Part shown: piece after piece, positions 20,087 through 58,830 of the stretch
How the letters are laid out: each line of letters starts with the position of its first letter
How positions within the stretch are numbered: the first letter of the stretch is position 1
Assembly: GCA_001917905.1 (NCBI GenBank)
Contig: MNEX01000110.1
Span: forward strand, 526-64,525
Direction of reading: 5' to 3'
DNA from: Acidobacteria bacterium 13_1_40CM_65_14
Lineage (GTDB): Bacteria > Acidobacteriota > Vicinamibacteria > Vicinamibacterales > CAVVIG01
DNA length: 64,000 nt
Translations under genes and position numbers: made by a program
Notes under the pieces: model-generated
What the model was told of the DNA's origin: nothing
What the model saw: only the letters and a program-made list of their open reading frames with translations
The model's database searches: none

Positions 20087-21853
20087 CTACCGATGCGTCC
20101 TCGGCGCCCGCGGTGGTTTCTCGCCTACGGCGACACGGTTCGCTTTCGCTCTTTCGCTTTCGCCTTTTGCCATCGATTCGCCTTTCGCCTGACCGGCTCG
20201 CTCCCCCAGCATCTCACGCGCGGAGCGCCGAAGGCCATCGCTAATCGCCTCGCCTCCCAGCATGCGCGCGAGCTCGTCGACTCGACGCGCCTCATCGAGT
20301 CGTCGGACGGTCGTCTTGGTGCGGCCGTGGTCGACACGCTTTTCGATCTGAAAGTGCGTGTCGGCGTAGGCGGCGATCTGCGGCAAGTGTGTGATGCACA
20401 GCACCTGAAACGCCGAGCCCAAGCCGCGCAGCTTGCGACCGACGACGTCCGCCACGCGTCCGCCGATCCCGGCGTCGACCTCGTCGAACACCAGACCCGG
20501 CGCCGCGGTGCTCGGCGGCCGATCGGCGGCGTCGTTGAACCCGTGGCGCGACGTCGCGGTGAGCGTCTTGATCGCCAGCATGATGCGTGACAACTCGCCG
20601 CCCGACACGATGCGCGCGAGCGGACGCAGATCTTCGCCGGGATTCGGCGAGACGAAGAACTCGGCGGCGTCGATGCCTCGCGCGCTCCATTCAGCCTCGG
20701 GCAGCGCGCCACCGAACCGCACCTCGAATCGCGTCTGCTCCATCGCCAGTTCGGCCAGCAGCGTCTCGAGTTGCGTCGCAAAGCCTCCGGCGACGCGACG
20801 CCGTGCGTGCGACAGCGCCTGGGCGGCCGCCAAGTAAGCCGTGCGCGCCGCGTCCACCGCGCGCTCGAGCTCGGCGATCCGCTCGTCGCCGCACTCGAGG
20901 TCGGACCGTTCCAGCTGCAGCGCCCGATGGCGGCTGATGACGTCGGCAAGCGTCGGCCCGTATTTCCGCTTCAAGCGCTCGAGCAGCGCCAGACGCTCCT
21001 CGACTTCCTGGAGCCGCGCGGGCGACGCCTCGATGCCCTCGGCATATCGGCGCAGAAACAGCGCCAGATCCTCGAGCTGTGACTTGATGGCTTCACGAGC
21101 CTCGAGGTACGGCTGGAATTGCGGATCGAGATCGGCGAGTTCCGCGACGCGACGCCAGACATTCCCGAGGGCCGACAAAATGGCGTCGTCACGCTCGTAC
21201 AACGACGCGTAGCTCTCCACGCACAACCGCTCGACGCGCTCCGCGCTGGCCAACACGTGTCGCAGCGCGGACAGCTCGTCGTCTTCGCCCGGCTTCGGCG
21301 CGGCGCGGTCGAGTTCGCCGAGCTGGAACGCGATGAGCTCCAACCGCGCGTTCCGATCGCTGGCGGCCGTCCGGACACGTGCGAGCTCCTCCTGGGCGGT
21401 TCGACACGCTTCGAACGCCAGGGCGCACGGCCCGGCGAGCGAATCGAGCGAACCGAATGTGTCGAGGACGCCGAGGTGTGTGGACGGATCGAGCAGTGTC
21501 TGATGCTCGTGTTGACCGTGGAGCTCGATCAACCGGGCCGAAAGATCCTTGAGCGCGCCAGCAGTGGCGAGCGCCCCGTTGATGAACGCGCGGCTCCGCC
21601 CTTGCGCGGTGATTTCGCGGCGGATCAGGAGCTCGTCGCCGCCGCTTTCAAAGAGGGCTTCGATGGCCGCGCTGTCCTCGCCCGTCCGCACCAGGTCTCC
21701 GGAGGCGCGTCCGCCGAGCAGCAGCCCGACGGCTTCGACCAGAATCGACTTGCCGGCGCCAGTTTCACCGGTAAGGACGTTGAGCCCGGGATCGAACTCG
21801 ACCTCGACCGAGTCGATGACGGCGAGATGCTGGATCCGGAGGAAGCGGAGCAT
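20087..21853 (-). CDS. recN: DNA repair protein RecN
   Basis: MLRFLRIQHLAVIDSVEVEFDPGLNVLTGETGAGKSIL, plus LVFDEVDAGIGG near the C-terminus. The last roughly 35 aa are encoded by a tandem-heptamer repeat. Confidence 0.9.
   Translation of the reverse strand: MLRFLRIQHLAVIDSVEVEFDPGLNVLTGETGAGKSILVEAVGLLLGGRASGDLVRTGEDSAAIEALFESGGDELLIRREITAQGRSRAFINGALATAGALKDLSARLIELHGQHEHQTLLDPSTHLGVLDTFGSLDSLAGPCALAFEACRTAQEELARVRTAASDRNARLELIAFQLGELDRAAPKPGEDDELSALRHVLASAERVERLCVESYASLYERDDAILSALGNVWRRVAELADLDPQFQPYLEAREAIKSQLEDLALFLRRYAEGIEASPARLQEVEERLALLERLKRKYGPTLADVISRHRALQLERSDLECGDERIAELERAVDAARTAYLAAAQALSHARRRVAGGFATQLETLLAELAMEQTRFEVRFGGALPEAEWSARGIDAAEFFVSPNPGEDLRPLARIVSGGELSRIMLAIKTLTATSRHGFNDAADRPPSTAAPGLVFDEVDAGIGGRVADVVGRKLRGLGSAFQVLCITHLPQIAAYADTHFQIEKRVDHGRTKTTVRRLDEARRVDELARMLGGEAISDGLRRSAREMLGERAGQAKGESMAKGESERAKANRVAVGEKPPRAPRTHR
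20141..20189. repeat. Single-arm tandem heptamer array (CTTTCGC-type) in the recN 3' end
   Basis: cgctttcgctctttcgctttcgccttttgccatcgattcgcctttcgcc encodes AKGESMAKGESERAKA. Confidence 0.7.
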
Positions 21854-21888
21854 GTGGGAAGCGCGAGAACTCCAATCGTAGCATAGGT

Positions 21889-21917
21889 TTGACAGCTATT
21901 TCACCCCATGATACAGT
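21889..21917 (+). promoter_or_regulatory. Sigma-70-like promoter candidate for the tol operon (TTGACA-N17-TACAGT)
   Basis: Perfect -35 at 21889-21894, a 17-nt spacer, and TACAGT at 21912-21917. Pattern match only. Confidence 0.35.
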
Positions 21918-22741
21918 TTTGCATTCGCGCTGTCCCAGCGGCGCATCGCTATGTCTCGGAGGGCCGTTTGCGCACGCTTGGAAGCCTCCCGCTCGCCTTG
22001 CTCCAGCAGGCGGCCGGCGGGGTTGCGCTCGAAAGCTCGGGTACGAGCATCGTCGGGCGCGTTGCTCATTTCACCCTCGTTTCCAAACTCGCGCTCCTGA
22101 GCCTCGGACTGCTATCAGTCATTTCCTGGGGCATCATCTTTTACAAACTCTGGACGTTCCGGCGGTCCGAGCGCCAAAGCGCACAGTTCCTCGACGTTTT
22201 CCGCCGCAGCAGCAAGTTTTCCGAGGTGCAGGCGGTCTGCCGATCGCTTGACGAGAGTCCGCTTGTCGGCCTGTTTCAATCGGCATACGCTGAGCTCACC
22301 GCGCAGCTGCGACAGAACCAGCCACCGGACGCGGCCGCGCCGGCCAATCCACGCGGCGCTCCCGGTCGTCCAACTCTCAAGAGCCTCTCGGCCGTCGATC
22401 GTGCGCTGATGCGTGCGGCCGTGGTCGAGGTCAACAAACTCGAGCGTCACATCACGTTTCTCGCGACGACCGCGAGCATGGCGCCGTTCATCGGCTTGTT
22501 CGGGACCGTCTGGGGCATCATCGCAGCGTTCGAGAACATTGGCCGGACGGGATCGACGAACCTCAGCGTCGTCGCGCCCGGGATTGCCGAGGCATTGGTC
22601 GCCACGGCTGCCGGTTTGATCGCCGCCATCCCGGCCGTGTACTTCTACAATGCGCTCTCGAACCGCGTGAAATTGTTCGCCTCCGAAATGGACGACTTCG
22701 CCATGGAGTTTCTGAACATCGCGGAAAGGAACTTTACGTAG
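21908..22741 (+). CDS. tolQ: MotA/TolQ/ExbB proton channel protein (TolQ)
   Basis: LLSLGLLSVISWGIIFYKLW and a TolQ-type C-terminal half, followed by tolR-tolA-tolB-pal. The true start is probably downstream (in-frame TTG at 21968 or 21998), because the promoter candidate overlaps the ATG at 21908. Confidence 0.8.
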   Translation: MIQFCIRAVPAAHRYVSEGRLRTLGSLPLALLQQAAGGVALESSGTSIVGRVAHFTLVSKLALLSLGLLSVISWGIIFYKLWTFRRSERQSAQFLDVFRRSSKFSEVQAVCRSLDESPLVGLFQSAYAELTAQLRQNQPPDAAAPANPRGAPGRPTLKSLSAVDRALMRAAVVEVNKLERHITFLATTASMAPFIGLFGTVWGIIAAFENIGRTGSTNLSVVAPGIAEALVATAAGLIAAIPAVYFYNALSNRVKLFASEMDDFAMEFLNIAERNFT

Positions 22742-23203
22742 GTGCCGAAGGTACAGCCTGCAGCGAGCGCCGCGTCGGGACGTCTGGGACGTGGCCGTCG
22801 CGTCAGTACCTCGCTCGCCGAGATCAATGTCGTTCCGCTCGTGGATGTGATGCTCGTGCTGCTGGTGATCTTCATGGTCACCGCACCAATGATTCAGCGC
22901 GGCGTCGACGTCAACATTCCGGTGTCGACGCGCTCGGGACAAATCGCGAACGAGCGGGTGTTCGTCAGCATCCCGCTCGCGTATCGTCAGAATCGCGTCG
23001 TGTATCTCGGCGACGAACCGATTCGCGCGGAGATCTTGCAGGAACGCATCCGGCAGAAGATGGAGAACCGCAGCGACAAAGAGGTCTACCTGCGCGGCGA
23101 CGCTGGCGTGCAGTATCAGGAGCTGATGGAGATATTCGACCGCCTGAAGGCGGCGGGCGTCGAAAAAGTGGGCCTCATCACCAAAATGCCAGGTGAACGC
23201 TAA
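22742..23203 (+). CDS. tolR: ExbD/TolR family biopolymer transport protein
   Basis: LAEINVVPLVDVMLVLLVIFMVTAPM, with a GTG start. Confidence 0.85.
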   Translation: MPKVQPAASAASGRLGRGRRVSTSLAEINVVPLVDVMLVLLVIFMVTAPMIQRGVDVNIPVSTRSGQIANERVFVSIPLAYRQNRVVYLGDEPIRAEILQERIRQKMENRSDKEVYLRGDAGVQYQELMEIFDRLKAAGVEKVGLITKMPGER

Positions 23204-23206
23204 TCC

Positions 23207-25935: not shown

Positions 25936-26775
25936 ATGAGACACAGAATTCTCGCCGTGGTTCTCGCCGGCGCGCTGGTCGCTGTCGCCGCGATGCCGGC
26001 GTCGGCCGCGAACAAGGAACATCAACAGCTGATGGCCGACATCCGCATGCTGCAGGAGCAATCGCAGCTGCTGCAGAACATGCTCGCGTCGCTGACCGAC
26101 GTCGTGAAGACGTTGAGCACGCATCTCGATCAGCGGCTGGATCAGCAGAACGCGGCGCTCGTCAAGGGCTTCGCCGATCAGAAGCTGATTCTCGATACGT
26201 TGTCGAACGACGCGCGCGTCATTCGCGAACGTCTCGATGACAACAACGTCCGCATCGGCTCGCTGACGCAGGAAGTCGAAGCGCTCCGTCATGCCCTGCA
26301 GCAGCGTCCCACCTCGACGGAGGTCGATCCGACCGGCGCCGCCGCGACGTCGGGCGGCGGCTCGAACGCCGGCGGATCGGCGCCGCCGGTCGGCTTGTCG
26401 CCGCAGAAGATGCAGGAAACAGCCCAGGCCGACTACGCGGCCGGCCAGTACGATCTGGCGATCGAAGGGTTCCAGGCGTACATCAAGAATTTTCCGAAGT
26501 CCGACTGGGTCGACGACGCGCAGCTGTTCATCTGCAAGTCTTATCTGCTCGAGGGCAAGAACGACAAGGCCGTGGACGCATGCGACGCGGTGATCCGCAA
26601 TTACCCGAGCGGCAACGCGGTTCCTGAGGCGTACTATCGGAAAGGTCTCGCCCTGAGCAATCTCCGCGACGTCGCCGGCGCGCGCGCGGCGTGCGACACC
26701 GTCGTGAAGAATTACAAAGACAGCGACGTCGCGATCCTCGCGCAGCAATGCCTCGACCGATTGCGGCGCCCGTAG
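25936..26775 (+). CDS. cpoB: Tol-Pal system protein CpoB/YbgF
   Basis: Signal peptide, coiled-coil N-terminal domain, and a C-terminal TPR region (YDLAIEGFQAYIKNFPKSDW...). Located downstream of pal. Confidence 0.8.
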   Translation: MRHRILAVVLAGALVAVAAMPASAANKEHQQLMADIRMLQEQSQLLQNMLASLTDVVKTLSTHLDQRLDQQNAALVKGFADQKLILDTLSNDARVIRERLDDNNVRIGSLTQEVEALRHALQQRPTSTEVDPTGAAATSGGGSNAGGSAPPVGLSPQKMQETAQADYAAGQYDLAIEGFQAYIKNFPKSDWVDDAQLFICKSYLLEGKNDKAVDACDAVIRNYPSGNAVPEAYYRKGLALSNLRDVAGARAACDTVVKNYKDSDVAILAQQCLDRLRRP

Positions 26776-26780
26776 CCATT

Positions 26781-26915
26781 CAGAACTTAGAACTTAGAAC
26801 TCAGAACTCAGAACTCAGAACTTAGAAGTTCGGAGCCGACGATGTAGAATGCTTCGGCTCGTTCACCGTTCTCAGTTCTAAGTTCTAAGGTCTGAGTTCT
26901 CATTTCTGAGTTCTC
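26781..26915. repeat. Hairpin with tandem-heptamer arms (AGAACTY x7 / complementary units) between cpoB and ssb
   Basis: Left arm 26781-26828 and right arm 26867-26915. The loop contains its own small stem, GAGCCGA...TCGGCTC. Confidence 0.85.
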
Positions 26916-26932
26916 AACCCCGAAGGGCACCT

Positions 26933-27391: not shown

Positions 27392-28324
27392 CTGATTGAG
27401 CAGGCACGCATAGACGCCGCGGCGCGCTTCATCGCGCGCCATTTTCCTCCGACGCGACTCGTGCGAGCCGCGTCGCTCAGCACGCACGACCGCATCGTCT
27501 ACCTGAAACTCGAGTCCGACCTGCCAACCGCGTCGTTCAAGATCCGCGGTGCGCTGTTCTCGTTGTCAGAACGCGTCCGTGCAGGCGAAGTGGCCGAGGT
27601 CGTCGCCGCCAGTACCGGAAATCATGGCGCGGCCGTGGCGTATGCCGGCCGGCAGCTCCGCGTCCGGACCACGATCTTTCTTCCCACTCGCCCGAATCCC
27701 GTCAAGGCGCCGCGGATTCGCGAGCTCGGCGCGTCGCTGGTCGAGACGGGACCGGATCTGACGGCGGCGATTGACGCGGCGCACGAGTACGCGGCGCGTA
27801 TCGGTGCGTTTTTTCTGCACGACGCGAGCGATCCCGACGTGCCGGTCGGCCGCGACGATTGGACGCGAGATTCTCCTCGAGCGGCCGGAGACCGGCGTCA
27901 TCTACGTGCCAGTCGGCGACTCCGCGCTCATCCGCGGCGTGGCCTCGGCCGCCAAACATCTTCGGCCCGCCAGCCGTATCGTCGGCGTTGTCGCCGAGCG
28001 CGGCCCGGCCTACTACTTGTCCTGGCAGCGCGGGCGCGTGGTTGAAACGGCGTCGGCGGACACGATTGCAGATGGGCTCGCTGTGCGGCGACCGCTGGCG
28101 CCCAACGTCGCCGCGATCGGCGAGCTCGTCGACGAGATGCGTCTCGGTGAGCGACGACGAGTTGCGCACGGCGATCGCGTTTTCTCGCACGGCACGAACA
28201 GGTCGTGGCGGAGCCCGCCGCGGCCGCTTCCGTGGCCGCGCTGCTGAAAGAAGAGGGACACGCTCGGGGAACGATCGCGCTCCTGGTCACCGGCGCCAAT
28301 ATCGCGCCGGATCTCAGGCTTTAG
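27392..28324 (+). pseudogene. PLP-dependent threonine dehydratase/ammonia-lyase-like gene with at least three frameshifts and no canonical start
   Basis: YLKLESDLPTASFKIRGAL and ASTGNHGAAVAY are in the frame of 27461. ATIGREILLERPETGVIYVPVGDSALIRG is in the frame of 27771. VSDDELRTAIAF is in a third frame. LARHEQVVAEPAAAASVAALL...GANIAPDLRL returns to the first frame, ending at 28324. One shift sits in a TTTT run. Confidence 0.7.
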
Positions 28325-31208: not shown

Positions 31209-31218
31209 AGCTTCTATC

Positions 31219-31314
31219 GTAAGGCAGGATAGGCAGGATGGGCAGGATAGGCAGGATCGGCGGCGCCTCCCCTCCCATCCAGCCCGTCCCGCCTATCCCG
31301 CCCTTCCCGCCTAC
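31219..31314. repeat. Hairpin with tandem-octamer arms (GGCAGGAT x4 / ATCCCGCC-type) between rapZ and EIIA
   Basis: Left arm 31219-31260 and right arm 31274-31314, with a loop of about 13 nt. The right arm touches the rapZ stop. Confidence 0.8.
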
Positions 31315-32348
31315 GAATGGCCAATATCACGATGACGGACGCGCACGCGCGCCCCGGCGACGTCGGCGAGAGCTTTTCGCAGACGTTCGGCGATCATCAC
31401 CGATCGGTGGCGGCCGCCCGTGCAGCCGACGGCGATGGTCAGGTAGCTCTTCCCTTCCGCGATGTAGTACGGCACGACGTAGCGGACGTATTCCGTGAGC
31501 CGGTCCATGAATGCGCGCGACGAGGTGTCGCGCTCCATGAACTCGGCGACGGCGCGATCGCGGCCGGTCCGGCGCCGCAGCGCGGGCACGAAGTGCGGAT
31601 TCGGCAGACAGCGCGCGTCGAACACGAGATCGGCGTCGACCGGCACGCCATGCTTGAAGCCGAAACTGAGCAGCGTGATCGTCAGCCGGGCCGCGGATCG
31701 ATCGCGCGAGAGCCCCATGAAGAACTGCCGCAGCTCGTGGACGGTCATGTCCGACGTGTCGACGATCTCGTCCGCGAGATCGCGGATCGCGTTCATCCGC
31801 TCACGCTCATCGCGAATGCCTTCGGTGACCGATCGATCCGGCGCGAGCGGATGCGGGCGGCGCGTTTCGCTGAACCGGCGGACGAGCGTGGCATGGCTCG
31901 CCTCCAGAAAAATCAGGATCGGGTTGAGCCGCGGCATCTTCCGCAGATTCTCGAAGACCTTGGCGAATGACGACAGGAATCCGCCTTCGCGCACGTCGAC
32001 GACGATTGCGACCTTGGTGATGTCGCCGCCCGTCTGCAGCGACAGCTTGGCGAGCGTGGGAATCAGCGTGGTCGGCAGGTTGTCGACGCAGAAGTACCCG
32101 AGGTCTTCGAGCGCCCGGATCGCCTGCGATTTTCCCGAGCCGGACAGACCTGTCAGCACGATGAACGGCTGGCCGCCCTTCTTTTTCCGATGCTCGCGGG
32201 GCCCGACTTTTCTCACCCGCTCCGGGGTCCCACCCCCCTCGCCGTTGCTCAGCGCACGCGCGCTTCGCGACGGCTCACGGCTGCCGCTCGCTCGCGCCGA
32301 CCTCCCAGCCTTACCCGTCACACCGGCCCGACCTGCCCGAGGACTCAT
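31311..32348 (-). CDS. rapZ: RNase adapter / nucleotide-binding protein RapZ (YvcJ family)
   Basis: FIVLTGLSGSGKSQAIRALEDLGYFCVDNLP and CTGGRHRSV. The ATG at 32348 overlaps the hprK stop (ATGA) but adds about 55 aa encoded by element B copy 3. An alternative GTG start lies at 32216. Confidence 0.85.
   Translation of the reverse strand: MSPRAGRAGVTGKAGRSARASGSREPSRSARALSNGEGGGTPERVRKVGPREHRKKKGGQPFIVLTGLSGSGKSQAIRALEDLGYFCVDNLPTTLIPTLAKLSLQTGGDITKVAIVVDVREGGFLSSFAKVFENLRKMPRLNPILIFLEASHATLVRRFSETRRPHPLAPDRSVTEGIRDERERMNAIRDLADEIVDTSDMTVHELRQFFMGLSRDRSAARLTITLLSFGFKHGVPVDADLVFDARCLPNPHFVPALRRRTGRDRAVAEFMERDTSSRAFMDRLTEYVRYVVPYYIAEGKSYLTIAVGCTGGRHRSVMIAERLRKALADVAGARVRVRHRDIGHS
32181..32298 (-). 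repeat. Dispersed element B, copy 3 (3' module partly duplicated), in the rapZ 5' region
   Basis: The minus strand reads GCGCGAGCGAGCGGCAGCC...GGCGAGGGGGGTGGGACCCCGGAGCGGGTGAGAAAAGTCGGGCCCCGCGAGCATCGGAAAAAG. Confidence 0.65.
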
Positions 32349-36250: not shown

Positions 36251-36266
36251 CGAAACGTTAAACGCG

Positions 36267-36352
36267 CCACCACAGAGGACACGGGGGACACGGAGGAACA
36301 AACCTGTTCCGGTTGGCTTTACCCTCTGTGTCCTCCACGTCCTCCGTGGTGG
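36267..36352. repeat. Hairpin CCACCACAGAGGACACGGGGGACACGGAGG / complement, between the lptC/A gene and lptB
   Basis: Arms at 36267-36296 and 36323-36352. The arms are near-identical to those at 54791-54876. Confidence 0.85.
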
Positions 36353-36358
36353 AGAGTT

Positions 36359-38494
36359 TCACGACTGACACTTACCGCCGCCTTTGGTCTGCGTGCGGGT
36401 CTGTTGATTGCCGTCGACGACGATACTATCGGTCGATTTGAGGAAGGTCAACGTCTTGCCGGTCGTCTCGCGCTCGCACTCGTCGATGATCTTCACCGGC
36501 GCGCCGACGATGACGTAGCGCTCGTCGGCGGTGGTGTAGGTCATGCGCATGCCGGTGGTTTTCCGATTCTGCTCGCGCAACGTGACGTTGTCGTAGGCCT
36601 CGGCGCGATCGAGCTCGTCGCCTGACGGCTTCAAGTACAGCTCGATCTTCGCGGCGGTCATGTCGCCCTCGGGGCTGCTCATGTGCGCGTCGCCGGTGTA
36701 GGTGAGGCGCCGCGGCGCGTCTTCGTATGTGAGATCCTTGGCCGTCGCCACCGAGCGGACCCGTTCTTTCTTGTTCTCCTTGTTGGTCTGCTCGAGCATG
36801 GTGGCGCTGGTGACTGCCGACGCGGTGAGATCGCCGGTCTTCGAGTCGATCAGGATCGATTCGCCTTTGATCGACGTGTCGCCCTGCCAGAGCTGCGCTG
36901 CGCCGGTGTACGCCGTCTTCGACGTGGTGCCGTCGTAATCGAGAGCCGTCGCCGTTACGTTCACCGGCTGATCCTGTTTCAGCATGGACGGCATTTTCGC
37001 GGTGTTTTCTCCAGCGCGCGGGGCCCCGCCCCCACTCGCGCCGGCCTCGCCAGCCTTCTTCGTCGGCTGGAGCACGCTTTTCACTTTGTCGGTTCCCGTC
37101 GCCGTGGCTTGGACTTTCGGTCCGTCGAGCGTGACGTCGATCTTGGCGGCATCGACGGCGATCTGCTCGTTCACGACGCGCGGCGCGGCGGCGCCCGGTT
37201 CGGATCCACTGAGCTCCAAAGTGCCTTTGTCGACGTCGTAGCGGGCCGTCGCGGCGACCGCCAACAGCTTCCCTTCTTCGAAGCGCACCGTGTGCGTGAA
37301 CTTGGCGTCCTCGATCGCGCTCATGCCGCGCTTGAGTCCGACGTCGAGGGTCGCGGAGCTCGCGGCGCGATTCACGTTCTGTCCGCGCTCGCGGAACTGG
37401 ACGTTGCCGGAGAACAGCGCGCGCGTGAGGCCGCGGCCAGCCTCGCCCTTCGCATTGAGCGTCGCCGACTGAATCGTGCGGCCCGGCGTGTCCGCCTCTG
37501 GCGGGATCGTCAACCGCACGGCGTCACGCGCGACGAGCGCGGTGGGCGTCGAGCCGTCGCGATCGAGCGTGATGTCCATCATCCCGGCGACGATCTCGCG
37601 CCCGGCCTTCCCCGCTTCTCCCGCGACCTGAACGGACGCGGCGCTGCCGATCGTCGCGTGCTCGAGCGTCTCGTCGGCGGCGTATTTCAGCGTGACGTCA
37701 CGCCCGCTCAGCGCTTGCAGCGCGCCAGGAGCCGCCTTCGCCGTCGTGATTTTCGTGTCGCCCCGCAGCTCGATCATCTCGATGCGCTTGCCGTCCTCAC
37801 TCAGATGCGCGACGGCGGTGTCCGCCTCGATGAGTTGTTCCCCGCGCTGCATGCGGACGTTCTTGTCGAACTGCCGGTACCGCTCGCGCCGGGCGAACGT
37901 GGCATTGCCGGACGTAATCTCGGTCGCGCCGCCGCCTCCGTCTGCGGCCGTGGTGATGACCGCCTGATCGAGAATCGAGAGCACGTCGCGCTCGCGGTCG
38001 AACGTCATGCCGACGCCCTTCGCGGTGGTCTTTCCCTCGGTGAGCTCGACCGGACCCGGCGCGCGGACGGTGTTGTCGCTCTTCGCGAACGTCGCATGCT
38101 CGGTGTGCGCGCGAACCTCGGACGAGACGAGCTGGACGTCGCCGTTCAACACGATCGTCGAGCCGTCAGCGCCGACCTCCGCTTCCTTCCCGGAGGCCTT
38201 GAGCGTGCCCTTGCCGTCTTTCTCGTCGGCCGTGATCGTGACGCCGTAGAGCTTCATCGATCCGTTGGCGTATATCTGCTGCGTCTGGAATTCGACGCTG
38301 ACATCCTGACGAGACAATTTGAAGCGCTCGAGCCGGCCCCCGGCCACTTCAATGGCAGCGCCGGGGTCGGACCGAGGGATGGGCGTCGAGGCCGCCGGCG
38401 GGTGGCGCGGCTTCCACTGCCGAGCAACGATTACGACAAACACCACGGCGAACGCGGCGATGATCAGCCGGGCTCTTCGTTGCCAGCGTGTCAC
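36359..38494 (-). CDS. Giant LptC/LptA (OstA-fold) LPS transport protein, membrane-anchored, 711 aa
   Basis: GTG start and an N-terminal anchor LIIAAFAVVFVVIV. After that it is all-beta with repetitive OstA-like segments. It occupies the lptC-lptA position upstream of lptB-rpoN. Element B copy 4 lies in frame about 210 aa from the C-terminus. Confidence 0.7.
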   Translation of the reverse strand: MTRWQRRARLIIAAFAVVFVVIVARQWKPRHPPAASTPIPRSDPGAAIEVAGGRLERFKLSRQDVSVEFQTQQIYANGSMKLYGVTITADEKDGKGTLKASGKEAEVGADGSTIVLNGDVQLVSSEVRAHTEHATFAKSDNTVRAPGPVELTEGKTTAKGVGMTFDRERDVLSILDQAVITTAADGGGGATEITSGNATFARRERYRQFDKNVRMQRGEQLIEADTAVAHLSEDGKRIEMIELRGDTKITTAKAAPGALQALSGRDVTLKYAADETLEHATIGSAASVQVAGEAGKAGREIVAGMMDITLDRDGSTPTALVARDAVRLTIPPEADTPGRTIQSATLNAKGEAGRGLTRALFSGNVQFRERGQNVNRAASSATLDVGLKRGMSAIEDAKFTHTVRFEEGKLLAVAATARYDVDKGTLELSGSEPGAAAPRVVNEQIAVDAAKIDVTLDGPKVQATATGTDKVKSVLQPTKKAGEAGASGGGAPRAGENTAKMPSMLKQDQPVNVTATALDYDGTTSKTAYTGAAQLWQGDTSIKGESILIDSKTGDLTASAVTSATMLEQTNKENKKERVRSVATAKDLTYEDAPRRLTYTGDAHMSSPEGDMTAAKIELYLKPSGDELDRAEAYDNVTLREQNRKTTGMRMTYTTADERYVIVGAPVKIIDECERETTGKTLTFLKSTDSIVVDGNQQTRTQTKGGGKCQS
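37004..37062 (-). repeat. Dispersed element B, copy 4 (short), in frame inside the lptC/A ORF
   Basis: The minus strand reads ...GGCGCGAGTGGGGGCGGGGCCCCGCGCGCTGGAGAAAACACCGCGAAAATG, followed by an in-frame ATG at 36994. Confidence 0.55.
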
Positions 38495-38496
38495 AA

Positions 38497-40233: not shown

Positions 40234-40278
40234 CCTCCTTCACTCAATCGGTACACGGGTTGCTCGATGCGCTTAATC

Positions 40279-40756: not shown

Positions 40757-40790
40757 CACTCAGCGATGGAACAAGCTACCCGTCCGAGTA

Positions 40791-41762: not shown

Positions 41763-41777
41763 CTACAGCAGGTCTCT

Positions 41778-41879
41778 CCACGAAAACACGAAACCGCGAA
41801 AACACCCTTCGACGAGCTCAGGGCAAGCGCCTGTGGTGAGCGTGTCGAACCATGGTTTCGTGCTTTCGTGGTTTCGTGG
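41778..41879. repeat. Hairpin with tandem-heptamer arms (CGAAAAC-type) between accA and dnaE
   Basis: Left arm CCACGAAAACACGAAACCGCGAAAACAC and right arm GGTTTCGTGCTTTCGTGGTTTCGTGG. The 48-nt loop has nested stems TTCGAC/GTCGAA and GCTCA/TGAGC. Confidence 0.85.
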
Positions 41880-41896
41880 CCGATCGTCGTGGCTGT

Positions 41897-46285: not shown

Positions 46286-47724
46286 CTACTCCCACTCGAT
46301 CGTCGATGCGCGACGAGATGCGTGCGAGCAGGTCGTGCGGCAGGCGCGCCCAGTCAGCCGTCATGCCGTCCTTGCTCTCGACCGCGCGAATCGCGGCGGT
46401 GTATTCGTAGGTCCGCTCGTCACCCATCACACCGACGCTCTGCACTGGCAGCAGCACCGCGAAGCTTTGCCACAGACGCGCGTACCAGCCCTCGCGCCGC
46501 ACTTCCTCCGCGACGATCGCGTCGGCCCGCCGCAACAGGGCGAGGCGATCCGGTGTCACCGCGCCGAGAATCCTGACGGCCAATCCAGGCCCGGGAAATG
46601 GCTGGCGGACGACGAATTCCTCGTCCAGTCCGAGCTGACGGCCGACGACCCGGACTTCGTCCTTGAAGAGCTCGCGCAGCGGCTCGACGAGCGTCATGCG
46701 CATGCGATCGGGCAGGCCGCCGACGTTGTGGTGACTCTTGATGACCGACGATTGTCCGACAATCGCAACCGATTCGATGACGTCCGGATACAGCGTCCCT
46801 TGAGCGAGAAAATCGACCCGACCGAGGTTCGTCGCTTGCTCCTCGAACACGTCGATGAACGTCGCACCGATGATTTTGCGCTTCTGTTCGGGATCGACGA
46901 CGCCGGCGAGTCGATTGAGAAACAGCTGCGATGCATCGACGAACACGAGTGGAAGCTGCAGTCGCTCGAAGCGCTTCCGTACCTGACTCGCTTCGTCGAG
47001 TCGCAGGACGCCGTTGTCGACGAAGACGCACGTCAGCTGATCGCCGACGGCGCGACGAATGAGCAACGCCGCGACCGTCGAGTCGACGCCGCCGCTCAGC
47101 GCGCAGACGACGCGTCCGCTGCCTACTTGCTTTCTGATCCGCGTCGTCGCCTCGTCGACAAACGACGCCATCGTCCAGTCGCCGGTGCAGCCGCAGACGC
47201 CGAACGCGAAGTTACGCAGGATCTCGAGGCCGCGCTCGGTGTGCACGACCTCCGGATGGAACAGCAACGCGTAGAGCTGGCGCTCCGGATGCGCCATCGC
47301 GGCCACAGGCGCATTCGCGCTGGTCGCGACGACGGCGAAGCCAGCCGGCGCGGCGGCGACGAAGTCACCGTGGCTGGCCCACACGCGGATCTCGTCGGGC
47401 ACCTCGCTGAACAACGCGGCCGGATCGGGCCGGCGCGACGCGACCGCCGAGCGCGTCCGCCATCAACTGCATGCCGTAGCAGATGCCGAGCACCGGTTTG
47501 CCGAGGTCGTAGACCTGCGGATCGCATTTCGGCGCGCCCGGCTCCGACACGCTCTTGGGTCCGCCCGAGAGGATGATCCCCACCGGATTCCGCGCGCGGA
47601 TTTTTTCGATCGGCGTGTCCGGCGGCCACACTTCCGAGTACACCGACAGTTCTCGCAGCCGCCGAGCGATGAGTTGGGTGTACTGAGAGCCGAAATCCAG
47701 AACGATGATGGTTTGGTGGTTCAC
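46286..47724 (-). pseudogene. guaA: GMP synthase (glutamine-hydrolysing) interrupted by two frameshifting deletions
   Basis: GATase part [20 protein letters not shown]...[17 protein letters not shown] is in the frame of 47724. VWASHGD...[12 protein letters not shown]...ARISSRI is in the frame of 47414. The canonical end TIEWE-stop (46286-46303) is in a third frame. About 10 aa are missing near 47425-47440 and about 20 aa near 46300-46310. Confidence 0.75.
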
Positions 47725-49078: not shown

Positions 49079-49110
49079 CCTACCGCCTGGTGGCGTCCGC
49101 TAGAGAGGAT

Positions 49111-49219
49111 GTGAAGAAATCACGTGAACGCAAAGGCCGCTAAGACCGCAAAGACGAATCTTTTCGAAAAAGATGCTTTGCGCGCTTTGCGATCTTTGCG
49201 TTCAACGTGATTCTTTCAC
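49111..49219. repeat. Hairpin with tandem-heptamer arms (CGCAAAG-type) downstream of the BamB-like gene
   Basis: Left arm GTGAAGAAATCACGTGAACGCAAAGGCCGCTAAGACCGCAAAGACG and right arm GCTTTGCGCGCTTTGCGATCTTTGCGTTCAACGTGATTCTTTCAC. The loop is the palindrome-like AATCTTTTCGAAAAAGAT. Confidence 0.85.
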
Positions 49220-49224
49220 AAGCG

Positions 49225-50789: not shown

Positions 50790-53700
50790 GTGTCCGTCAT
50801 CCTGCGTGTGGCCCGAGCGGGGCTCGTCGCCGCACTGCTCGTCGCCCTCGTCGGCTGGGCGTCCGAGCGTCAGCGCTTCGGCTCCTCGGACCAGGCCGCG
50901 CTCGCACGCGTGGAGCGCGAGCTGCGCCAGCGCTTCGACGCGAGCGCCGACACGCTCGGCAGCCTGGCGGCGCGCGTGGCGTCCAACCGCGAGGCCTTTG
51001 GCGCGGCGCCGCGCGACGCCGCGGAGGTCAAGCGGCTCTTCGACGCTTGCGCCGCCGCGATTCCCAGCGATCAGGCGGGGCGCACCGGCATCAGCATCTA
51101 CGACCCGACGGCGGCGCCGCTCGCGTGGGCCGGCCGCGTCTCCGACCTCCCGCGGGCTCGCATCGACGGTCCCGCGGCCTTGTTCGTCGCGCCCGGCGCG
51201 CTCGGACCGCGACTCATCCGGATCGAGCCGGTGATGAACGGCGATCGATCGTCTGCGGTGCGCCTCGCGACGGTCGTCGTGGAACAAACACTCGGCACGG
51301 CAGCCGGCGCGCCGGGCCCCGCGGACAGCTTCGTTCTGGCCACATCGATCGCCCCAGCGGCGGTACGAACACCACTCCCAATCTCCAATCAACAATCAAT
51401 CCGCAATCCGCAACCCGCAATCCGCACTGACAGCACCGGTCCGTACTCCTTCGTGATCCCGTCGCCGAATGGCGGTGTGCTCGTTGAGGCGGCGGTGTCA
51501 CCGCAGGACCTTGCGTCCGCGCGCGACGGCTGGTCGCGCGGTGTGCGCGCGACCGTCATCTCGGTGCTGGGCGTGACGCTGCTCCTCTGCGCCTGGCCCA
51601 CCGTCGAACTGCGTCGGCGGACGCCAAGCGCGCGAACGTTCCTCCTCGCCACGGCCGCGACCATCGCGATGTTGCTCGCCGCCCGCTTCACGTTCTGGAT
51701 CGCCGCGGCTGCGGTCGTCGATGCGCTGGGCGCCGGATCTCCGCTCAATCTGCTGCTCACCGCGCTGACCACGGCCGCGCTCGCGTGGCTGGCGATCGAT
51801 CTCATCGAGCGGCGGCGGCTCGCCCGGCCGCGGCCGCGCGTCTTGACCCCGTCGCTGCCCGTGGGCGCGTTGTGGACCGCCGCGTTTGCCATGGCGGGGC
51901 TCGCCGGCACGTGGCTCGTCTGGCTCTACGAACGGATCGTGCAGAGGGTGATATCGCACACCGATCTCGACCTCCTGCACTTCTCCCTGCATCCGATTAG
52001 CGCTGCGCGGCTCGGACTGACCTGCGCGCTCGTGCTGCTCGACGCCGCGATCATCTGGAGCGCCGCCGCAATGATTCGCGTGCCGGCGCTGGTCAGCCGT
52101 CCGCCGCGGAGCCGGACGTGGCGCGCCGGCGCCGCCGTGGCGTGGATGGCGGGCGTCGTGCTCGCCACCTTCGTGCTGCGCCTGCCTGGACCGCCCGTGC
52201 CGGTCGGGCCGCTCTGGATCGCGATGCTGGCGGCGGGCGTGTCCGCGATCGTGCTCGCGCGCATCGGCAGCAAGCTCCGGCGGGCGTCACAAGCGGCGCG
52301 GCTCGTCGCCGTCTTCCTCGCACTTCTCGTTCCGGCGGTGGCGATGTATCCGTCGCTCTTCGCCTATGCGACCGAGGCCAAAGAGCTGCTGATCGCCGGC
52401 GAGTACGGGCCGCAGGCGCTGCGCCAGCGAGACGATTTGAAGTTGCGGCTCGCGCACACGCTCGATCAGATCGACGCGCTGCCAACACTCCGGCAGTTCG
52501 TGACCGCGTCGGGAATCTCGAATGGCGCCGCGGGCCCCGCGCCGACCACGGACCGCGCGTTCTTCGTCTGGTCGAAGACGGATCTCGCCACCTACCGCTT
52601 GACGTCCGCCATCGAGCTGTACGGCGCCAACGGCCGTTTGGTGGATCGTTTCTCCAACCTGCCGGAATACACGGCTGCGCCGTACTTCGCGACGAGTTGC
52701 AGCTGGGAGCCGGTCGCCGAGGTGTCGCCATTCGGCTCGGCGATTCGCCAAGTGCTGCGCGCGAGCCGCGGCATCTGTGAGCGCGGCCGGCCGATCGGCG
52801 CCATCGTCGTGCGCGCGATGCTCGACTATCGGACGCTGCCGTTCATTTCCTCGCAAAGCCCGTATCTGGAATCGCTCCGGCCGAACCGCGAGGCGCGGGC
52901 CGAAGGCGTCTTCGGCCGCGACGTGGAATTCGTGGTGTACGGGTGGAGCCGCGCGCCGCTCTTCAGCTCCGGCACCAGCGTCTGGCCGCTGCCCGATCGC
53001 GTCTTCGAGCGGATGGTGGAGTCGCGCGAGCCGTTCTGGGACGAGTTGGAGCGCGACGAGCGCCAGTACCGCGTGGATTTTCTCAACGATCGCGGGGGGA
53101 TCTACGCGCTCGGCTACCCGGTCATCACGTGGTTCGGCCACGTCATCAACATGGCCGAGCTCGTGACGCTGACAGGCGTCCTGTATCTCGCGCTGCTCCT
53201 CGGCGCCACGCTGTTCAACCTGCTCACGTCGCGGACGCCAGCGAGCGGCCGCGCGCTGCTGCGCGAGGTGCGGTCCAGTTTCTATCGCAAGTTGTTTCTC
53301 GCGTTCTGGGCCGTGGCGGTCGTACCGGTCGCCATCCTCGCGATCGGCACGCGGACCTATGTCGCGGCGCAGCTCCGCGCGAGCACCGAGGAAGCGGCGG
53401 CCAGGACGGTGACGGTCGCGCAACGCCTGGTCGAGGACTACGCGTCGCTCCAGCAACGCGGTCCCGGTTCGCTGACGACGATCGACGATCAAATCATGGT
53501 GCTCGTACGGCGCGCGATCGACGAAGACGTGAACCTCTTCGACCGCGACCACCTGCAGGCGACCAGTGCTCGCGATCTGTTCGCCACGCAGCTCCTGCCG
53601 ATGCGGACGCCGGGCGACGTGTACAAGACGATTCTGCTCGACCGGATGCCCACCTTCGTCGGCGAAGAGCAGGTTGGCGATCTGACGGCATATCGCCTCG

Positions 53701-54767: not shown

Positions 54768-54790
54768 AGCGCATTGCAGAATCAAGCGCT

Positions 54791-54876
54791 CCACCACGGA
54801 GGACACGGGGGACGCGGAGGAAAAATCGTGTTTTGGACAGGGTTGACCCTCCTGTCCTCCGTGTCCCCTGTGGTGG
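54791..54876. repeat. Hairpin CCACCACGGAGGACACGGGGGACGCGGAGG / complement, downstream of the kinase
   Basis: Arms at 54791-54820 and 54848-54876. It is a sequence homologue of 36267-36352, including partial loop similarity. Confidence 0.85.
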
Positions 54877-54937
54877 CGAGGTAATTTTCAACGCTCTCTT
54901 GGGGCGGCCGCGGGCAGTCCCCTGGCGGCCTTCGCGT

Positions 54938-56776: not shown

Positions 56777-56804
56777 ACGAAGCCTCCGGTGCGCGGATTA
56801 TATC

Positions 56805-56841
56805 GGGGGATGGGCGATCGGCGATCGGGTGATCGGCGATG
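56805..56841. repeat. GGCGATC-type tandem array immediately downstream of pssA
   Basis: gggggatgggcgatcggcgatcgggtgatcggcgatg. Confidence 0.7.
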
Positions 56842-57687
56842 TCAGCGCGCAGCGCTGTCGCGTGCGGGGGGTTCGCTCGTCGAGACAGGCAGACTGCTGT
56901 CGGACACCTGGCCGCGTCCACCGCGATACTTGAAGCGCGTGATCGCCATGCCGACGAACGCGGACGCGAGATAGCTGTACGCCATCACGACGAGCACGAA
57001 CCGCGGATGCGTGGCGACCGCCACGATACCGGCGGCGATGAAGATGAGCACGGTGTACGGCTGACGAGCCCGGAGGTCCAGCGTTTTGAAACTGCGGAAA
57101 CGAATCGTGCTGACCATCAGGATCGCGGGCACGAGCACCATCGCCAGCGCGGGCAGCGCCTCGCGATAGTCGAAGAGGCCCCACGGGTACGCGTAGACCG
57201 TCGCGGCCGGAACCGCGGCCGCCGCCGGGCTCGGCATCCCGACGAAGTACCGCTTGTCGCTGCCGGACATGCCTTGAATGTTGAACCGCGCCAGCCGCAT
57301 CGCTGCGCAGGCGACGAACATGAAGCCGGCGGCCCAGCCGAGGCGGCCGAGCGAATTGAGTCCCCACGCGAACGACAGGACGGCCGGCGCGATGCCGAAT
57401 GAGATGACGTCGGCCAGCGAGTCGAACTGGAGACCGAACTCGCTCTCGGCGCCCATCAGCCGCGCGATGCGGCCGTCGAGCATGTCGAGCGCGAACGCGA
57501 AGCCGATGAACGGCGCCGCCGTCTCGTACTCGCCGCGCATCGCGTACACGACGCACGCGTAGCCGCAGAACATGTTGCCCATCGTGAACAGGCTGGGCAA
57601 CAGGTACACACCACGGCGGAACCGGCGCCGCGGCCGGTGCGCCCCGCGCCGCAGGAACCTCAGTCGTCCTTCAGGATGATCAACCAC
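56842..57687 (-). CDS. pssA: CDP-diacylglycerol--serine O-phosphatidyltransferase
   Basis: CDP-alcohol phosphatidyltransferase motif LDMLDGRIARLMGAESEFGLQFDSLADVISF. Confidence 0.85.
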   Translation of the reverse strand: MVDHPEGRLRFLRRGAHRPRRRFRRGVYLLPSLFTMGNMFCGYACVVYAMRGEYETAAPFIGFAFALDMLDGRIARLMGAESEFGLQFDSLADVISFGIAPAVLSFAWGLNSLGRLGWAAGFMFVACAAMRLARFNIQGMSGSDKRYFVGMPSPAAAAVPAATVYAYPWGLFDYREALPALAMVLVPAILMVSTIRFRSFKTLDLRARQPYTVLIFIAAGIVAVATHPRFVLVVMAYSYLASAFVGMAITRFKYRGGRGQVSDSSLPVSTSEPPARDSAAR

Positions 57688-57715: not shown

Positions 57716-57717
57716 CG

Positions 57718-58344
57718 TCAGTGTAGCAGAGCGATCACGGTCTCGCCGGCGCGGACGATGTCGCCAACCTTGACCGTCATGGTGGCGGTCATCGGCACAA
57801 ACACATCCATTCGCGACCCGAACTTCATGATGCCGAAACGCTCGCCGGAGCGGACGTCGGCGCCCTTCTCCACACGGCAGACGACGCGCCGGGCGAGGAT
57901 GCCGACGACTTGCCGCACGACGACCGTCTGCCCGTCGTGATCGATCCAGATCTCGCTGCGTTCGTTCGCGCTTCCCGCGTCGTGGCGGTATGCGGGCAAG
58001 AACCGTCCGGGAATATAGCTGACGCTGGTCACGCGTCCGGACACCGGGATGCGATTCACATGCACGTCAACCGGCGAGAGGAAAATACTGATCTGCTGCC
58101 ACTCGCCGGGCGGCGCCGATTCCTTCAGCGCGGGGCCCGCGTGGATCACGCGGCCGTCGGCCGGGGCGAGCACGGCATGCACTTCGGTGGGCGGTACGCG
58201 CTCGGGGTCGCGGAAGAAGAACGCGAAGAACGCGCCGAGCGCGACGAATGGAATCGCCAGAAACCAGGCGACGGCTGCGCCGGCCACGAAGGCGAGCAGC
58301 AGCGCGCCGCCGATGAACGGGAGCCCTGCAGGATCGAAACGCAT
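57718..58344 (-). CDS. psd: Phosphatidylserine decarboxylase (short, membrane-anchored form)
   Basis: Two N-terminal TM helices, FFRDPER, and a GS cleavage-type motif in MKFGSRMDVFVP. Located upstream of pssA. Confidence 0.8.
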   Translation of the reverse strand: MRFDPAGLPFIGGALLLAFVAGAAVAWFLAIPFVALGAFFAFFFRDPERVPPTEVHAVLAPADGRVIHAGPALKESAPPGEWQQISIFLSPVDVHVNRIPVSGRVTSVSYIPGRFLPAYRHDAGSANERSEIWIDHDGQTVVVRQVVGILARRVVCRVEKGADVRSGERFGIMKFGSRMDVFVPMTATMTVKVGDIVRAGETVIALLH

Positions 58345-58413
58345 CGGGTGATCGCGTGATCGGCGATCGAGGTCGACCGCGTATGCGATCGCAGATCACC
58401 CGATCGGCGATGG
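58345..58413. repeat. Hairpin with GGTGATCG/GGCGATCG-type arms immediately upstream of psd
   Basis: Left arm CGGGTGATCGCGTGATCGGCGATCGA, loop GGTCGACCGCGTAT, right arm GCGATCGCAGATCACCCGATCGGCGATGG. Confidence 0.75.
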
Positions 58414-58414
58414 C

Positions 58415-58642
58415 TTACGCCTGCTGGCGATGGCGACGGAGGATGTCCTCCATCCGATCTTTTAACTGGAGCTTGCGCTTTTTGAGGGTGACTTCTTCGA
58501 GTTGTTCGGGTTCGGAAAGGTAATGCTTGGCGGTCAGTTCATGCAGGCGATCTTCAAGTTCGTGATGCTTGGCGGCGAGTTGGTTGAATTCGTGGTCCGT
58601 CTGCAGCAGCTGTGCTTTCAGATCATGCGGCTGTGCATTCAT
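58415..58642 (-). CDS. DUF465 (YdcH-like) small coiled-coil protein
   Basis: The start MNAQPHDLKAQLLQTDHEFNQL follows AAGGAGG. 75 aa, with LSEPEQLEEVTLKKRKLQLKD typical of the family. Confidence 0.75.
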   Translation of the reverse strand: MNAQPHDLKAQLLQTDHEFNQLAAKHHELEDRLHELTAKHYLSEPEQLEEVTLKKRKLQLKDRMEDILRRHRQQA

Positions 58643-58763
58643 GCTCCGCCTCCTTGGACATCGATTAAGCGGGGAACTCGAGAACGGTGGAGAGGGCCGT
58701 GCGGCTGCATCAATTCCGAGTATGTGACGAGCCGAAAGTACCACAACGATACCGGCGTTTCAA

Positions 58764-58830
58764 CCCCAACAGCTGAGACCCCAACAGCTGAGAGCTGATT
58801 GCCGAGAACTGAGAGCTGCGGCTTTCAGTT
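58764..58830. repeat. Perfect 15-bp tandem duplication (CCCCAACAGCTGAGA x2) followed by the hairpin AACTGAGAGC-TGC-GGCTTTCAGTT
   Basis: 58764-58778 is identical to 58779-58793, with a hairpin at 58807-58830 just 3' of the rimI stop. Confidence 0.8.

Follow-up and report, generated by a model that had tools for sequence, protein, structure and literature searches.

Hairpins with tandem-repeat arms in intergenic gaps of the Vicinamibacterales and their association with genes for GxxExxY (PDDEXK_3) predicted nucleases

What are the hairpins with arms of short tandem repeats that stand between housekeeping genes in the genome of Acidobacteria bacterium 13_1_40CM_65_14, and how do they arise? We analyzed a 64,000-nucleotide stretch of this genome, termed here the window (assembly GCA_001917905.1, contig MNEX01000110.1, positions 526 to 64,525), in which a preliminary description had counted about 13 hairpins of 7-8-nt tandem units, with a different unit at nearly every locus. 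The flagged loci are a mixture. One is a complete gene cassette encoding a GxxExxY protein, four are gene-less hairpins of a class termed GX, another is a variant 9-mer hairpin, and two are heptamer hairpins, one in a decayed state; a weak case and four orphan arrays make up the rest. Judged by their sequence, the GX arms are the terminal inverted repeat of a cassette carrying a GxxExxY (PDDEXK_3) nuclease gene, and about half of the true hairpins form one conserved-sequence family tied to GxxExxY, as predicted cassette ends or gene-less remnants. The reading that we favor, with a probability of roughly 0.55, is that the true hairpins are lineage-wide dispersed palindromic DNA repeats of the Vicinamibacterales, similar to foldback (FB) elements or to REPINs (hairpin-forming doublets of repetitive extragenic palindromic (REP) sequences), and that the GX class represents the ends or gene-less derivatives of the GxxExxY cassette, with the nuclease acting in trans.

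Each locus was folded and compared with 200 dinucleotide-preserving shuffles, using intervals that pad the elements slightly (26775-26920, 31215-31318, 36262-36356, 41774-41883, 49108-49222, 54786-54880 and 58760-58850). At these seven strong loci no shuffle (0/200) folded as well as the real DNA, with z-scores (z) from -4.8 to -8.2, and the proposed hairpins thus stood at seven loci, were weak at 58345-58413 and dissolved into unpaired arrays at four others. Tandem Repeats Finder (TRF) recovered the arrays where they had been described, with periods of 7-9 nt instead of 7-8. The cassette and the strong hairpins are as follows.

40270 to 40305, plus strand: 5' arm of the GxxExxY cassette, three CACAAAGG(A/G) units (TRF period 9, 2.9 copies).
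40313 to 40702, plus strand: GxxExxY / PDDEXK_3 gene, 129 aa (TIGR04256, PF13366).
40730 to 40765, plus strand: 3' arm of the GxxExxY cassette, three CCTTTGTGT units (TRF; inverted-repeat finder).
36267 to 36352, no strand assigned: gene-less GX-type hairpin in the lptCA/lptB gap, arms of CCACCAC then three CACGGAGGA-like units; z -6.2.
54791 to 54876, no strand assigned: gene-less GX-type hairpin in the convergent gap between a histidine kinase gene and a PQQ-repeat protein gene, three CACGGAGGA-like units; z -7.8.
41778 to 41879, no strand assigned: GX-type hairpin in the dnaE/accA gap, 3.4 CACGAAAA-like units at 8-nt spacing, loop of 48 nt; z -5.8.
49111 to 49219, no strand assigned: GX-type hairpin in the convergent gap after a BamB-like gene, three CGCAAAGAC-like units; z -8.2.
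31222 to 31313, no strand assigned: 9-mer-armed palindrome in the rapZ/EIIA gap, 4.4 copies of AGGCAGGAT on the left and three on the right, loop of 25 nt; z -6.0.
26780 to 26916, no strand assigned: heptamer-armed palindrome in the cpoB/ssb gap, 6.9 copies of TCAGAAC on the left and seven of GTTCTNA on the right, loop of 41 nt; z -6.7.
58763 to 58850, no strand assigned: 15-mer repeated twice, then a degenerate AGCTGAG heptamer hairpin at 58794-58845 (TRF); z -4.8.

The arrays previously paired at 40279-40305 and 40728-40756 are a genuine inverted pair, but they enclose the 129-aa gene and not a loop; the complete cassette spans 40270-40765, and its 36-nt arms are 89% complementary. These arms and the hairpins at 36267, 54791, 41778 and 49111 are the GX members of the window, giving a ratio of five GX elements per GxxExxY gene. 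All five share one unit family, and the description of a different unit at nearly each locus is only partly correct. The intervals 36262-36356 and 54786-54880 are identical at 75 of 95 nt (79%), loop included, and are paralogues. The lptCA|lptB site of the first is empty in most relatives, with stop and start codons adjacent. The outer stem of 49111-49219 reaches beyond its repeats, and the dnaE|accA element has orthologues in 13 relatives, with units CACGAAGC, CACGAAGA and GACGCAGA.

We extended the analysis to a wider sample consisting of the window and 80 related loci (1.46 Mb, 90% coding), which came from a RecJ-anchored scan with one genome per species, nearly all of them metagenome-assembled genomes (MAGs) of Vicinamibacterales / Acidobacteriota. 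The sample is one 20-kb neighborhood repeated across relatives, and all counts for orthologous gaps are to be read in that sense. Genes were called with a codon model trained on the window, and an element was defined as a TRF array with an adjacent reverse-complement match by local alignment, since a strict run-length detector found almost none. The 116 kb of intergenic DNA in this sample held 248 arrays and 86 paired elements, compared with 13-20 arrays and no paired element in its dinucleotide shuffles (n=5). An adjacent reverse-complement partner accompanied 177 of 274 intergenic arrays (65%) versus 21 of 402 coding arrays (5%). Because pairing is absent from the shuffles and rare in coding arrays, the refuting outcomes named in the preliminary description did not materialize; the phenomenon is real and strongly non-random, and paired elements are almost solely intergenic. 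Dozens of independent MAGs, built from short as well as long reads, carry the elements, on which ground an assembly artefact was rejected. Six records (L047, L077, L080, L052, L054 and L066) are labelled as Bifidobacterium, Betaproteobacteria or Acidimicrobiia MAGs; their RecJ proteins are 68-81% identical to the Vicinamibacterales query, so these bins are probably mislabelled or contaminated.

The GX class is represented in the sample by at least 39 elements with periods of 9 or 8 and about three units per arm. They share the core C-R-C-R-R-A-R, the 5' arm is purine-rich in 39/39 cases, and the arm reads as a TTCAC-like sequence followed by three CRCRRAG(G/A)N units at 8-9 nt spacing. GxxExxY was the only gene found in the long loops of elements at the sampled loci. 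Integron attC sites were considered and rejected on anatomy, as the tandem-unit arms lie on both sides of the open reading frame (ORF), and no integrase appeared among the flanking genes scanned with NCBIfam or Pfam, which were a minority of the window genes. CRISPR arrays were likewise rejected on anatomy.

The association of GX arms with GxxExxY genes recurs well beyond the window. A GxxExxY gene occupies the accA|recJ gap in the window and in about 26 relatives, and 9-mer arms flank most of these copies (20 with arms called by the detector); several are frameshifted, truncated or deleted. One relative (L023) carries at accA|recJ a gene-less hairpin that aligns to both cassette ends, extending about 40 nt internal to one arm, and is on this account an internal-deletion derivative. 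GX-type arms surround GxxExxY genes in at least four bacterial phyla, including Bacteroidota, Gemmatimonadota and Alphaproteobacteria. In a collection of plasmids and chromids, inverted arrays bracket the gene in Bacteroides finegoldii (CACAGAGGA-type), Bernardetia (CACAGAGAN) and Gemmatirosa (CGCAGAGGA), and a looser CGCGAAGG-type array accompanies it in Sphingomonas; no cyanobacterial GxxExxY cassette was present in the plasmid collection. Other repeats flank the gene in Treponema, in Prevotella and in a fusobacterium. Those of the Prevotella locus (L085; arrays of tandem ACAAATNN units) and the fusobacterial locus (L087; the 22-nt CAGATTTAATCCGTGTACCTAT on both sides) are direct and not inverted, and these two loci could represent either cassettes arrayed in tandem or another subfamily.

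Metagenome loci gave the same picture. Among the 72 loci with sufficient flank, 57 had an upstream/downstream arm complementarity score of at least 14, with a median of 21.5 versus 9.5 for arms paired across loci. The core-anchored arm consensus was T-T-C-A-C followed by C-R-C-A/G-G-A-G-(G/A)-N, exactly three units were present in 105 of 143 arms, and units were spaced by 9 nt (162 cases) or 8 nt (67 cases). Unit variant and protein similarity were weakly but significantly correlated (0/1000 label shuffles as strong). The contigs with close GxxExxY homologues are mostly very short, about 0.5-2 kb, which fits palindromic arms breaking metagenome assemblies. A search of the literature on GxxExxY, PDDEXK_3 and PF13366, incomplete in its coverage, found no paper on flanking repeats.

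Gene-less copies greatly outnumber the gene in Gemmatirosa. A single GX hairpin used as the query matched one megaplasmid at 40 or more places and another at 39 or more (at least 79 together), and the GxxExxY genes detected numbered only three, all of them on the same replicon. A 50-kb sample of that replicon contained single and nested GX hairpins, a variant with three copies of ACAGGATGA that resembles the window element at 31222, and a heptamer hairpin with seven GGGACTG units. On Gemmatirosa plasmid 1 (L174), at 5493-5647 and 18238-18406, an inner hairpin with three CACAGAGGA units lies within outer arms of three CGCAGAGGA units, and this nesting suggests that one element was inserted into the loop of another. 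A second kind of nesting, an AGATTTA heptamer hairpin whose loop holds two GX units (CACGGAGGACACGGAGG), was seen in L012 (18770-18896) and L050 (18903-19030); heptamer hairpins around GX as a general rule were rejected, since this pair of loci is the only instance.

The product of 40313-40702 matches TIGR04256 (E 5e-42, 142.9 bits against a cut-off of 35) and PF13366 (E 5e-41, 140.2 bits against a cut-off of 22). Across 11 diverse members there is no variation at D67, E77 and K79 (D...ExK) or in the GxxExxY motif. In the AlphaFold2 model (predicted local distance difference test score 92) the best Foldseek match in the Protein Data Bank (PDB) was Cas4 SSO0001; the best matches also included lambda-type exonucleases, Bax1 and the PD-(D/E)XK homing endonuclease I-Bth0305I, with TM-scores that were all modest. 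Sequence conservation and the model together identify the 129-aa protein as a predicted minimal PD-(D/E)XK nuclease with an intact catalytic motif and an alpha-beta core that resembles Cas4 and lambda exonuclease. A sequence search of the PDB returned no relative, PHROGs gave no match, and PADLOC gave only a marginal one (RTasPDDEXK, E 0.0056). The family is large, with 27,036 clusters at 50% identity at E up to 1e-3. Many top library matches (P0121-P0131 and others) are proteins of 270-295 aa with two GxxExxY domains, and these could be either tandem cassettes or gene-caller fusions read through stop-free 9-mer arms.

The positions of the elements bear on whether they act as DNA or as RNA. 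We located 108 elements in 21 orthologous gaps of 50 genomes, almost exclusively intergenic, with accA|recJ (22 elements), the region upstream of dnaE (15), recJ|lptC (14), dnaE|accA (14) and rapZ|EIIA (11) as the busiest. Within one gap, the sequence of the unit, its period and the number of copies vary from relative to relative, and many relatives have empty sites where stop and start codons are adjacent or overlap. At the rapZ|EIIA site of 31222-31313, which is of the variant 9-mer type, relatives show GX-type 9-mers or 7-mers, and at the cpoB|ssb site of the 26780 element a relative (L045) has a TGAGAAC unit. Presence/absence and unit turnover at orthologous gaps are observed; the architecture of units, loop and complementary units in co-directional housekeeping gaps is real and returns at these gaps with other units, and the gene neighbors given in the preliminary description (cpoB|ssb, rapZ|EIIA, lptCA|lptB and accA|dnaE) were correct. 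Elements were found in 2 of 100 divergent, 82 of 872 co-directional and 5 of 81 convergent gaps, with a density of 0.07 per kb in divergent versus 0.98 per kb in co-directional gaps. They start at a median of 5 nt past the stop codon and end at a median of 16.5 nt short of the next start codon.

Such placement in transcribed gaps, with depletion from divergent ones and regular spacing from stop and to start, would be expected if the elements punctuated operons at the RNA level, as RNase III or other processing sites, 3'-end stabilizers, U-less terminators or translational insulators, with the long terminal stem excising or insulating the mRNA of the cassette in the manner of the intervening sequences (IVS) of 23S rRNA. 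We consider this the main rival of the favored reading, and an improbable one. Several further observations speak for it: 9 of the 17 stem pairs in the dnaE|accA element show double-sided, compensatory changes, both convergent gaps in the second half of the window hold an element, GxxExxY genes among co-directional neighbors mostly share their direction (27 same, 6 opposite), the whole-cassette fold has a 32-bp terminal stem that closes a 511-nt RNA (z -4.7), and the short tandemly repeated repetitive (STRR) hairpins of cyanobacteria were proposed to be transcript stabilizers (PMC2670836). The strand comparison did not bear it out. Of the 71 short-loop elements that lie between co-directional genes, 35 folded more stably as the sense strand and 35 as the antisense strand, with 217 versus 221 G-U pairs; this symmetry indicates that pairing is not preferentially preserved on the transcribed strand. 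The role in termination suggested earlier finds no T-tract after any element, and Rho-independent terminators were accordingly rejected. A terminator scan gave 17 sites where 12.4 ± 3.5 were expected, which is no enrichment; no terminator-like site coincided with a whole-element stem, and the few matches inside elements were short sub-stems. Within the scanned 20 kb just one intrinsic terminator looks canonical; it follows ssb at 27421-27450 (a 7-bp GC stem, then ATTTTCC) and sets the repeat-armed hairpins apart as features of another kind. A search of Rfam with the window and with cassettes from other phyla gave no match at the gathering score, returning only sub-threshold and spurious matches to eukaryotic miRNA precursors. 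An element that is absent from the same gap in many close relatives cannot be required there, the unit sequence and copy number are hypervariable, and the window cassette is antisense to its operon, with its gene opposing the flanking accA and recJ. An RNA role is thus weakened by strand symmetry and kept alive by the positional biases.

The elements outside the GX class (n=69) comprise 38 heptamers, 18 octamers, nine variant 9-mers and four of other periods; 26780 and 58794 are the 7-8-mer members in the window. The arms of 26780-26916, which is not of the GX class, measure 63 nt and are 78% complementary by the inverted-repeat finder. The GC content of the 7-/8-mer arms averages 47%, against 66% for the genome, and their median copy number is 4.4; the two arms often have unequal numbers of copies, and arrays are sometimes nested. 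The octamers belong mostly to one family (AGGATTTG-like) present at several sites in several genomes. The two classes evolve at different rates: in close genome pairs, element versus flank identity was 0.96/0.98, 0.93/0.96 and 0.92/0.92 for GX, and 0.91/0.985, 0.76/0.94 and 0.54/0.95 for heptamer elements. The proposal that architecture is kept while sequence is not accordingly describes the 7-mer class but not the GX class, whose arm sequence is conserved across phyla. In the sister genomes L060 and L061, which have identical flanks, both arms carry mirrored unit changes, and these require arm-to-arm information transfer or replacement.

Mirrored changes of this kind, unequal arm copy numbers, nested arrays, the fast turnover of 7-mer elements relative to their flanks and the orphan arrays that occur even within ORFs are all what one would see if the elements were purely mutational by-products, in which slippage makes the arrays and quasipalindrome template switching mirrors them, with no mobility, dedicated protein or function. 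As an account of all the hairpins we hold this to be unlikely, and somewhat less likely than RNA punctuation. It offers no explanation for a unit and terminal sequence fixed at three copies across phyla, for the linkage to one gene family, for the same unit at different sites of one genome, or for the near-identical Gemmatirosa copies (at least 79). The third of these points was quantified for the non-GX elements, counting units as shared at no more than one mismatch: elements at different sites share a unit in 23% of pairs within a genome versus 3% between genomes (odds ratio 9.7, p 1e-4), which argues for inter-locus copying or homogenization and not for independent local birth. The earlier alternative of a format-specific generating mechanism or a structure-level function is retained in part, in that the 7-mer class fits a repeat-specific mutational process, and a strand-specific RNA function is unsupported.

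The three regularly spaced conserved motifs of the GX arms, their dyad symmetry and the lack of strand bias could also point to duplex DNA bound by a protein, in arrays comparable to iterons or nucleoid-protein sites that serve host regulation or chromosome organization. We give this very little credence, as the 7-8-mer units are too variable for one protein, orthologous sites are polymorphic for presence and absence, and promoter regions are avoided.

Under the favored reading of dispersed palindromic DNA repeats, elements would settle in short transcribed stop-to-start gaps, be gained and lost at orthologous sites, and form genome-specific unit families. For the GX class, the short hairpins would arise as gene-less internal-deletion derivatives or copies of the GxxExxY cassette. 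The PD-(D/E)XK nuclease would recognize the triple-repeat arms, either in duplex form or extruded into a hairpin or cruciform, and would act in trans to help both cassettes and gene-less hairpins to be copied or maintained, as proposed for REPINs and the REP-associated tyrosine transposases (RAYTs). For the 7-8-mer class, arrays would grow and shrink by replication slippage, and arm complementarity would be kept by intrastrand (quasipalindrome) templating or by inter-locus copying. The architecture, the enrichment over shuffled DNA, the turnover at orthologous sites, the cross-phylum association of gene and repeat and the surplus of gene-less copies are shown by the data; the action of the nuclease on the arms, and the mode of spread, we infer by analogy with RAYT/REPIN (PMC3116915).

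Several points weigh against this reading. The close homologues of the window GxxExxY copy are all at accA|recJ, and are thus vertically inherited and not visibly mobile. GX elements change no faster than their flanks, and recent movement was not caught. The comparison of filled with empty orthologous sites revealed no clear target-site duplication. Nuclease activity, binding and transposition by GxxExxY proteins are predictions. The correlation between unit and protein is small (0.58 versus 0.55 identity), and shared ancestry may be an alternative source for it. In the sampled loci we found no gene associated with the 7-8-mer class. Avoidance of divergent gaps, and the roughly 16 nt left before the next start codon, are equally expected under an RNA-level role or constraint; the promoter-gap avoidance, the room for a ribosome-binding site, the 9/17 compensatory pairs and the 32-bp cassette stem are all compatible with RNA constraint or co-option. 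Finally, sampling a single 20-kb neighborhood across relatives means that the sites are not independent.

A stronger form of the favored reading, which we put forward tentatively and as distinctly less probable than its parent, holds that GxxExxY proteins are the dedicated nucleases of an unrecognized multi-phylum class of hairpin repeats, a PD-(D/E)XK counterpart of RAYT-REPIN. These nucleases would recognize arms of three 9-nt units and would propagate or maintain gene-bearing cassettes, along with hundreds of gene-less hairpins, between the cistrons of housekeeping operons, and the STRR and Xanthomonas arrays would stem from the same or a sister process. In a bolder variant still, the nuclease would cut the RNA stem, and the cassette would be an intervening sequence in bacterial mRNA.

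How these elements relate to known systems is clearest for REP sequences. REP elements and RAYT transposases are reportedly the subject of work by Nunvar in 2010. Both systems have short extragenic palindromic repeats that form inverted doublets and long hairpins, many gene-less copies beside few repeat-flanked nuclease or transposase genes, mostly vertical inheritance, a location in transcribed gaps, rarity in promoter regions, and genome-specific families. They differ in that the arms here are tandem 7-9-nt units, whereas a REP is a 20-40-nt imperfect palindrome with a family consensus, and no REP-like unit was found here; the gene here encodes a PD-(D/E)XK protein of about 125 aa and can be multi-copy, whereas RAYT is of the IS200/IS605-type Y1 group; and the link of gene to repeat rests here on sequence comparison. 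No RAYT gene is present in the window. RAYT transposases have been proposed to act on REPINs in trans (Bertels and Rainey 2011, PMC3116915). The contention that the elements behave in the opposite way to REP sequences, bacterial interspersed mosaic elements or MITEs (miniature inverted-repeat transposable elements) did not survive, because they behave like REP/REPIN or MITE populations in their unit families, presence/absence, gene-less derivatives and numerous Gemmatirosa copies (at least 79).

Long terminal inverted repeats made of short tandem repeats, a center that holds a gene or is almost absent, and non-autonomous deletion derivatives are features shared with FB transposons and MITEs. 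FB elements, however, are eukaryotic and transposase-dependent, and here no transposase was found; the gene-less hairpins apparently derive from the GxxExxY cassette, whose protein is not a known transposase. Terminal inverted repeats, as in MITEs, are present, and filled and empty sites differ by no clear duplication. The IVS in the 23S rRNA of Leptospira and Coxiella resemble the cassette in placing a small ORF in a long stem of flanking inverted repeats inside a host transcript. Their host transcript is an rRNA, RNase III excises them, and the protein they encode is a four-helix bundle; the host transcripts here are mRNAs, and excision is a proposal.

Nor are the heptamer hairpins without precedent, as had been supposed. 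STRR heptamers, and the P12 hairpin of RNase P RNA, were reportedly described by Mazel in 1990 and Vioque in 1997. STRR share with our elements the tandem 7-bp units in intergenic hairpins and the several unit sequences per genome; they are described only in heterocystous cyanobacteria, and no associated gene is reported for them. They form tandem heptamer hairpins in the hupS-hupL and other gaps, by a mechanism that was not given (PMC2670836), and the GGGGATT unit of L055 is the same as the Nostoc GGGGA(T/C)T unit (PMC4692102). In Xanthomonas, 70-75 GGGAATC arrays per genome are paired on opposite strands with the potential to form a stem-loop or cruciform (Rehm et al. 2015, PMC4692102), and repeat lengths differ between species while the type is preserved (PMC4692102). 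These are also intergenic heptamer arrays, and in our sample L001 and L002 contain GGGATTC and GGGATTT units; they differ in having a single unit, studied as a G-quadruplex former, whereas most units here cannot form G-quadruplexes, and in belonging to another phylum. The convergent-pair architecture of heptamers is present in our 38 heptamer elements, including 26780-26916. Most units here differ from those of STRR and Xanthomonas, with only GGGGATT and GGGATTC-like units coinciding, and the host is an acidobacterium.

The remaining flagged loci of the window are the weak case and the orphan arrays.

58345 to 58413, no strand assigned: weak imperfect hairpin, GATC-rich, with GGCGATC-like units; z -2.3, 5 of 200 shuffles as good (58340-58416).
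56805 to 56841, no strand assigned: orphan GGCGATC-like array, no hairpin; z +0.2 (56800-56875), no partner found.
51378 to 51427, plus strand: orphan CAATCCG array in a histidine-kinase ORF, in frame, no hairpin; z 0 (51375-51430).
38497 to 38530, minus strand: orphan array of four AGTCTGA units overlapping the recJ stop codon; z +1.4 (38490-38535), no complementary arm found.
20139 to 20190, minus strand: tandem heptamers coding the 39-aa C-terminal tail of RecN, no hairpin; z +0.8 (20135-20195).

Four loci that had been taken for hairpins (20141-20189, 38497-38530, 51378-51427 and 56805-56841) thus have z of 0 or above, and two of them lie inside ORFs. At the recJ|lptC site the relatives L001 and L002 have full hairpins and other relatives are empty, and the array at 38497-38530 is probably the remnant of an element that is still complete in relatives. 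Models of RecN stop at residue 549 of 588, and the tail beyond (20087-20203, minus strand) is built from GCGAAAG-type heptamers; as tandem heptamers encode it, the array appears to have lengthened the ORF. In the kinase ORF (1,325-1,379 aa) the coding potential falls only over 51348-51437 (log-likelihood ratio -12) and returns in the same frame, and the CAATCCG array looks like an in-frame repeat insertion. Two short ORFs, 27804-28247 and 47365-47724, match only fragments of larger enzymes (PALP and GATase class I, respectively) and stand beside long non-coding gaps; they are possibly gene remnants or split genes.

On the practical side, the repeats appear to create spurious ORF extensions and fusions, as in the RecN tail, the kinase-ORF array and the predicted two-domain GxxExxY proteins, the palindromes are likely assembly breakpoints in soil metagenomes, and the elements could serve as strain-typing markers. 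The heptamer hairpins themselves were already known, and the present results connect the cyanobacterial and Xanthomonas examples with comparable elements of Acidobacteriota and Gemmatimonadota. The new and potentially important part is a hairpin repeat system linked across phyla to a predicted PD-(D/E)XK nuclease. The GxxExxY/PDDEXK_3 family is very large and has been assigned no function, and its genes often lie between housekeeping genes; the arms give it a testable candidate substrate, and the two together may constitute a second nuclease-plus-hairpin system, independent of RAYT/REPIN.

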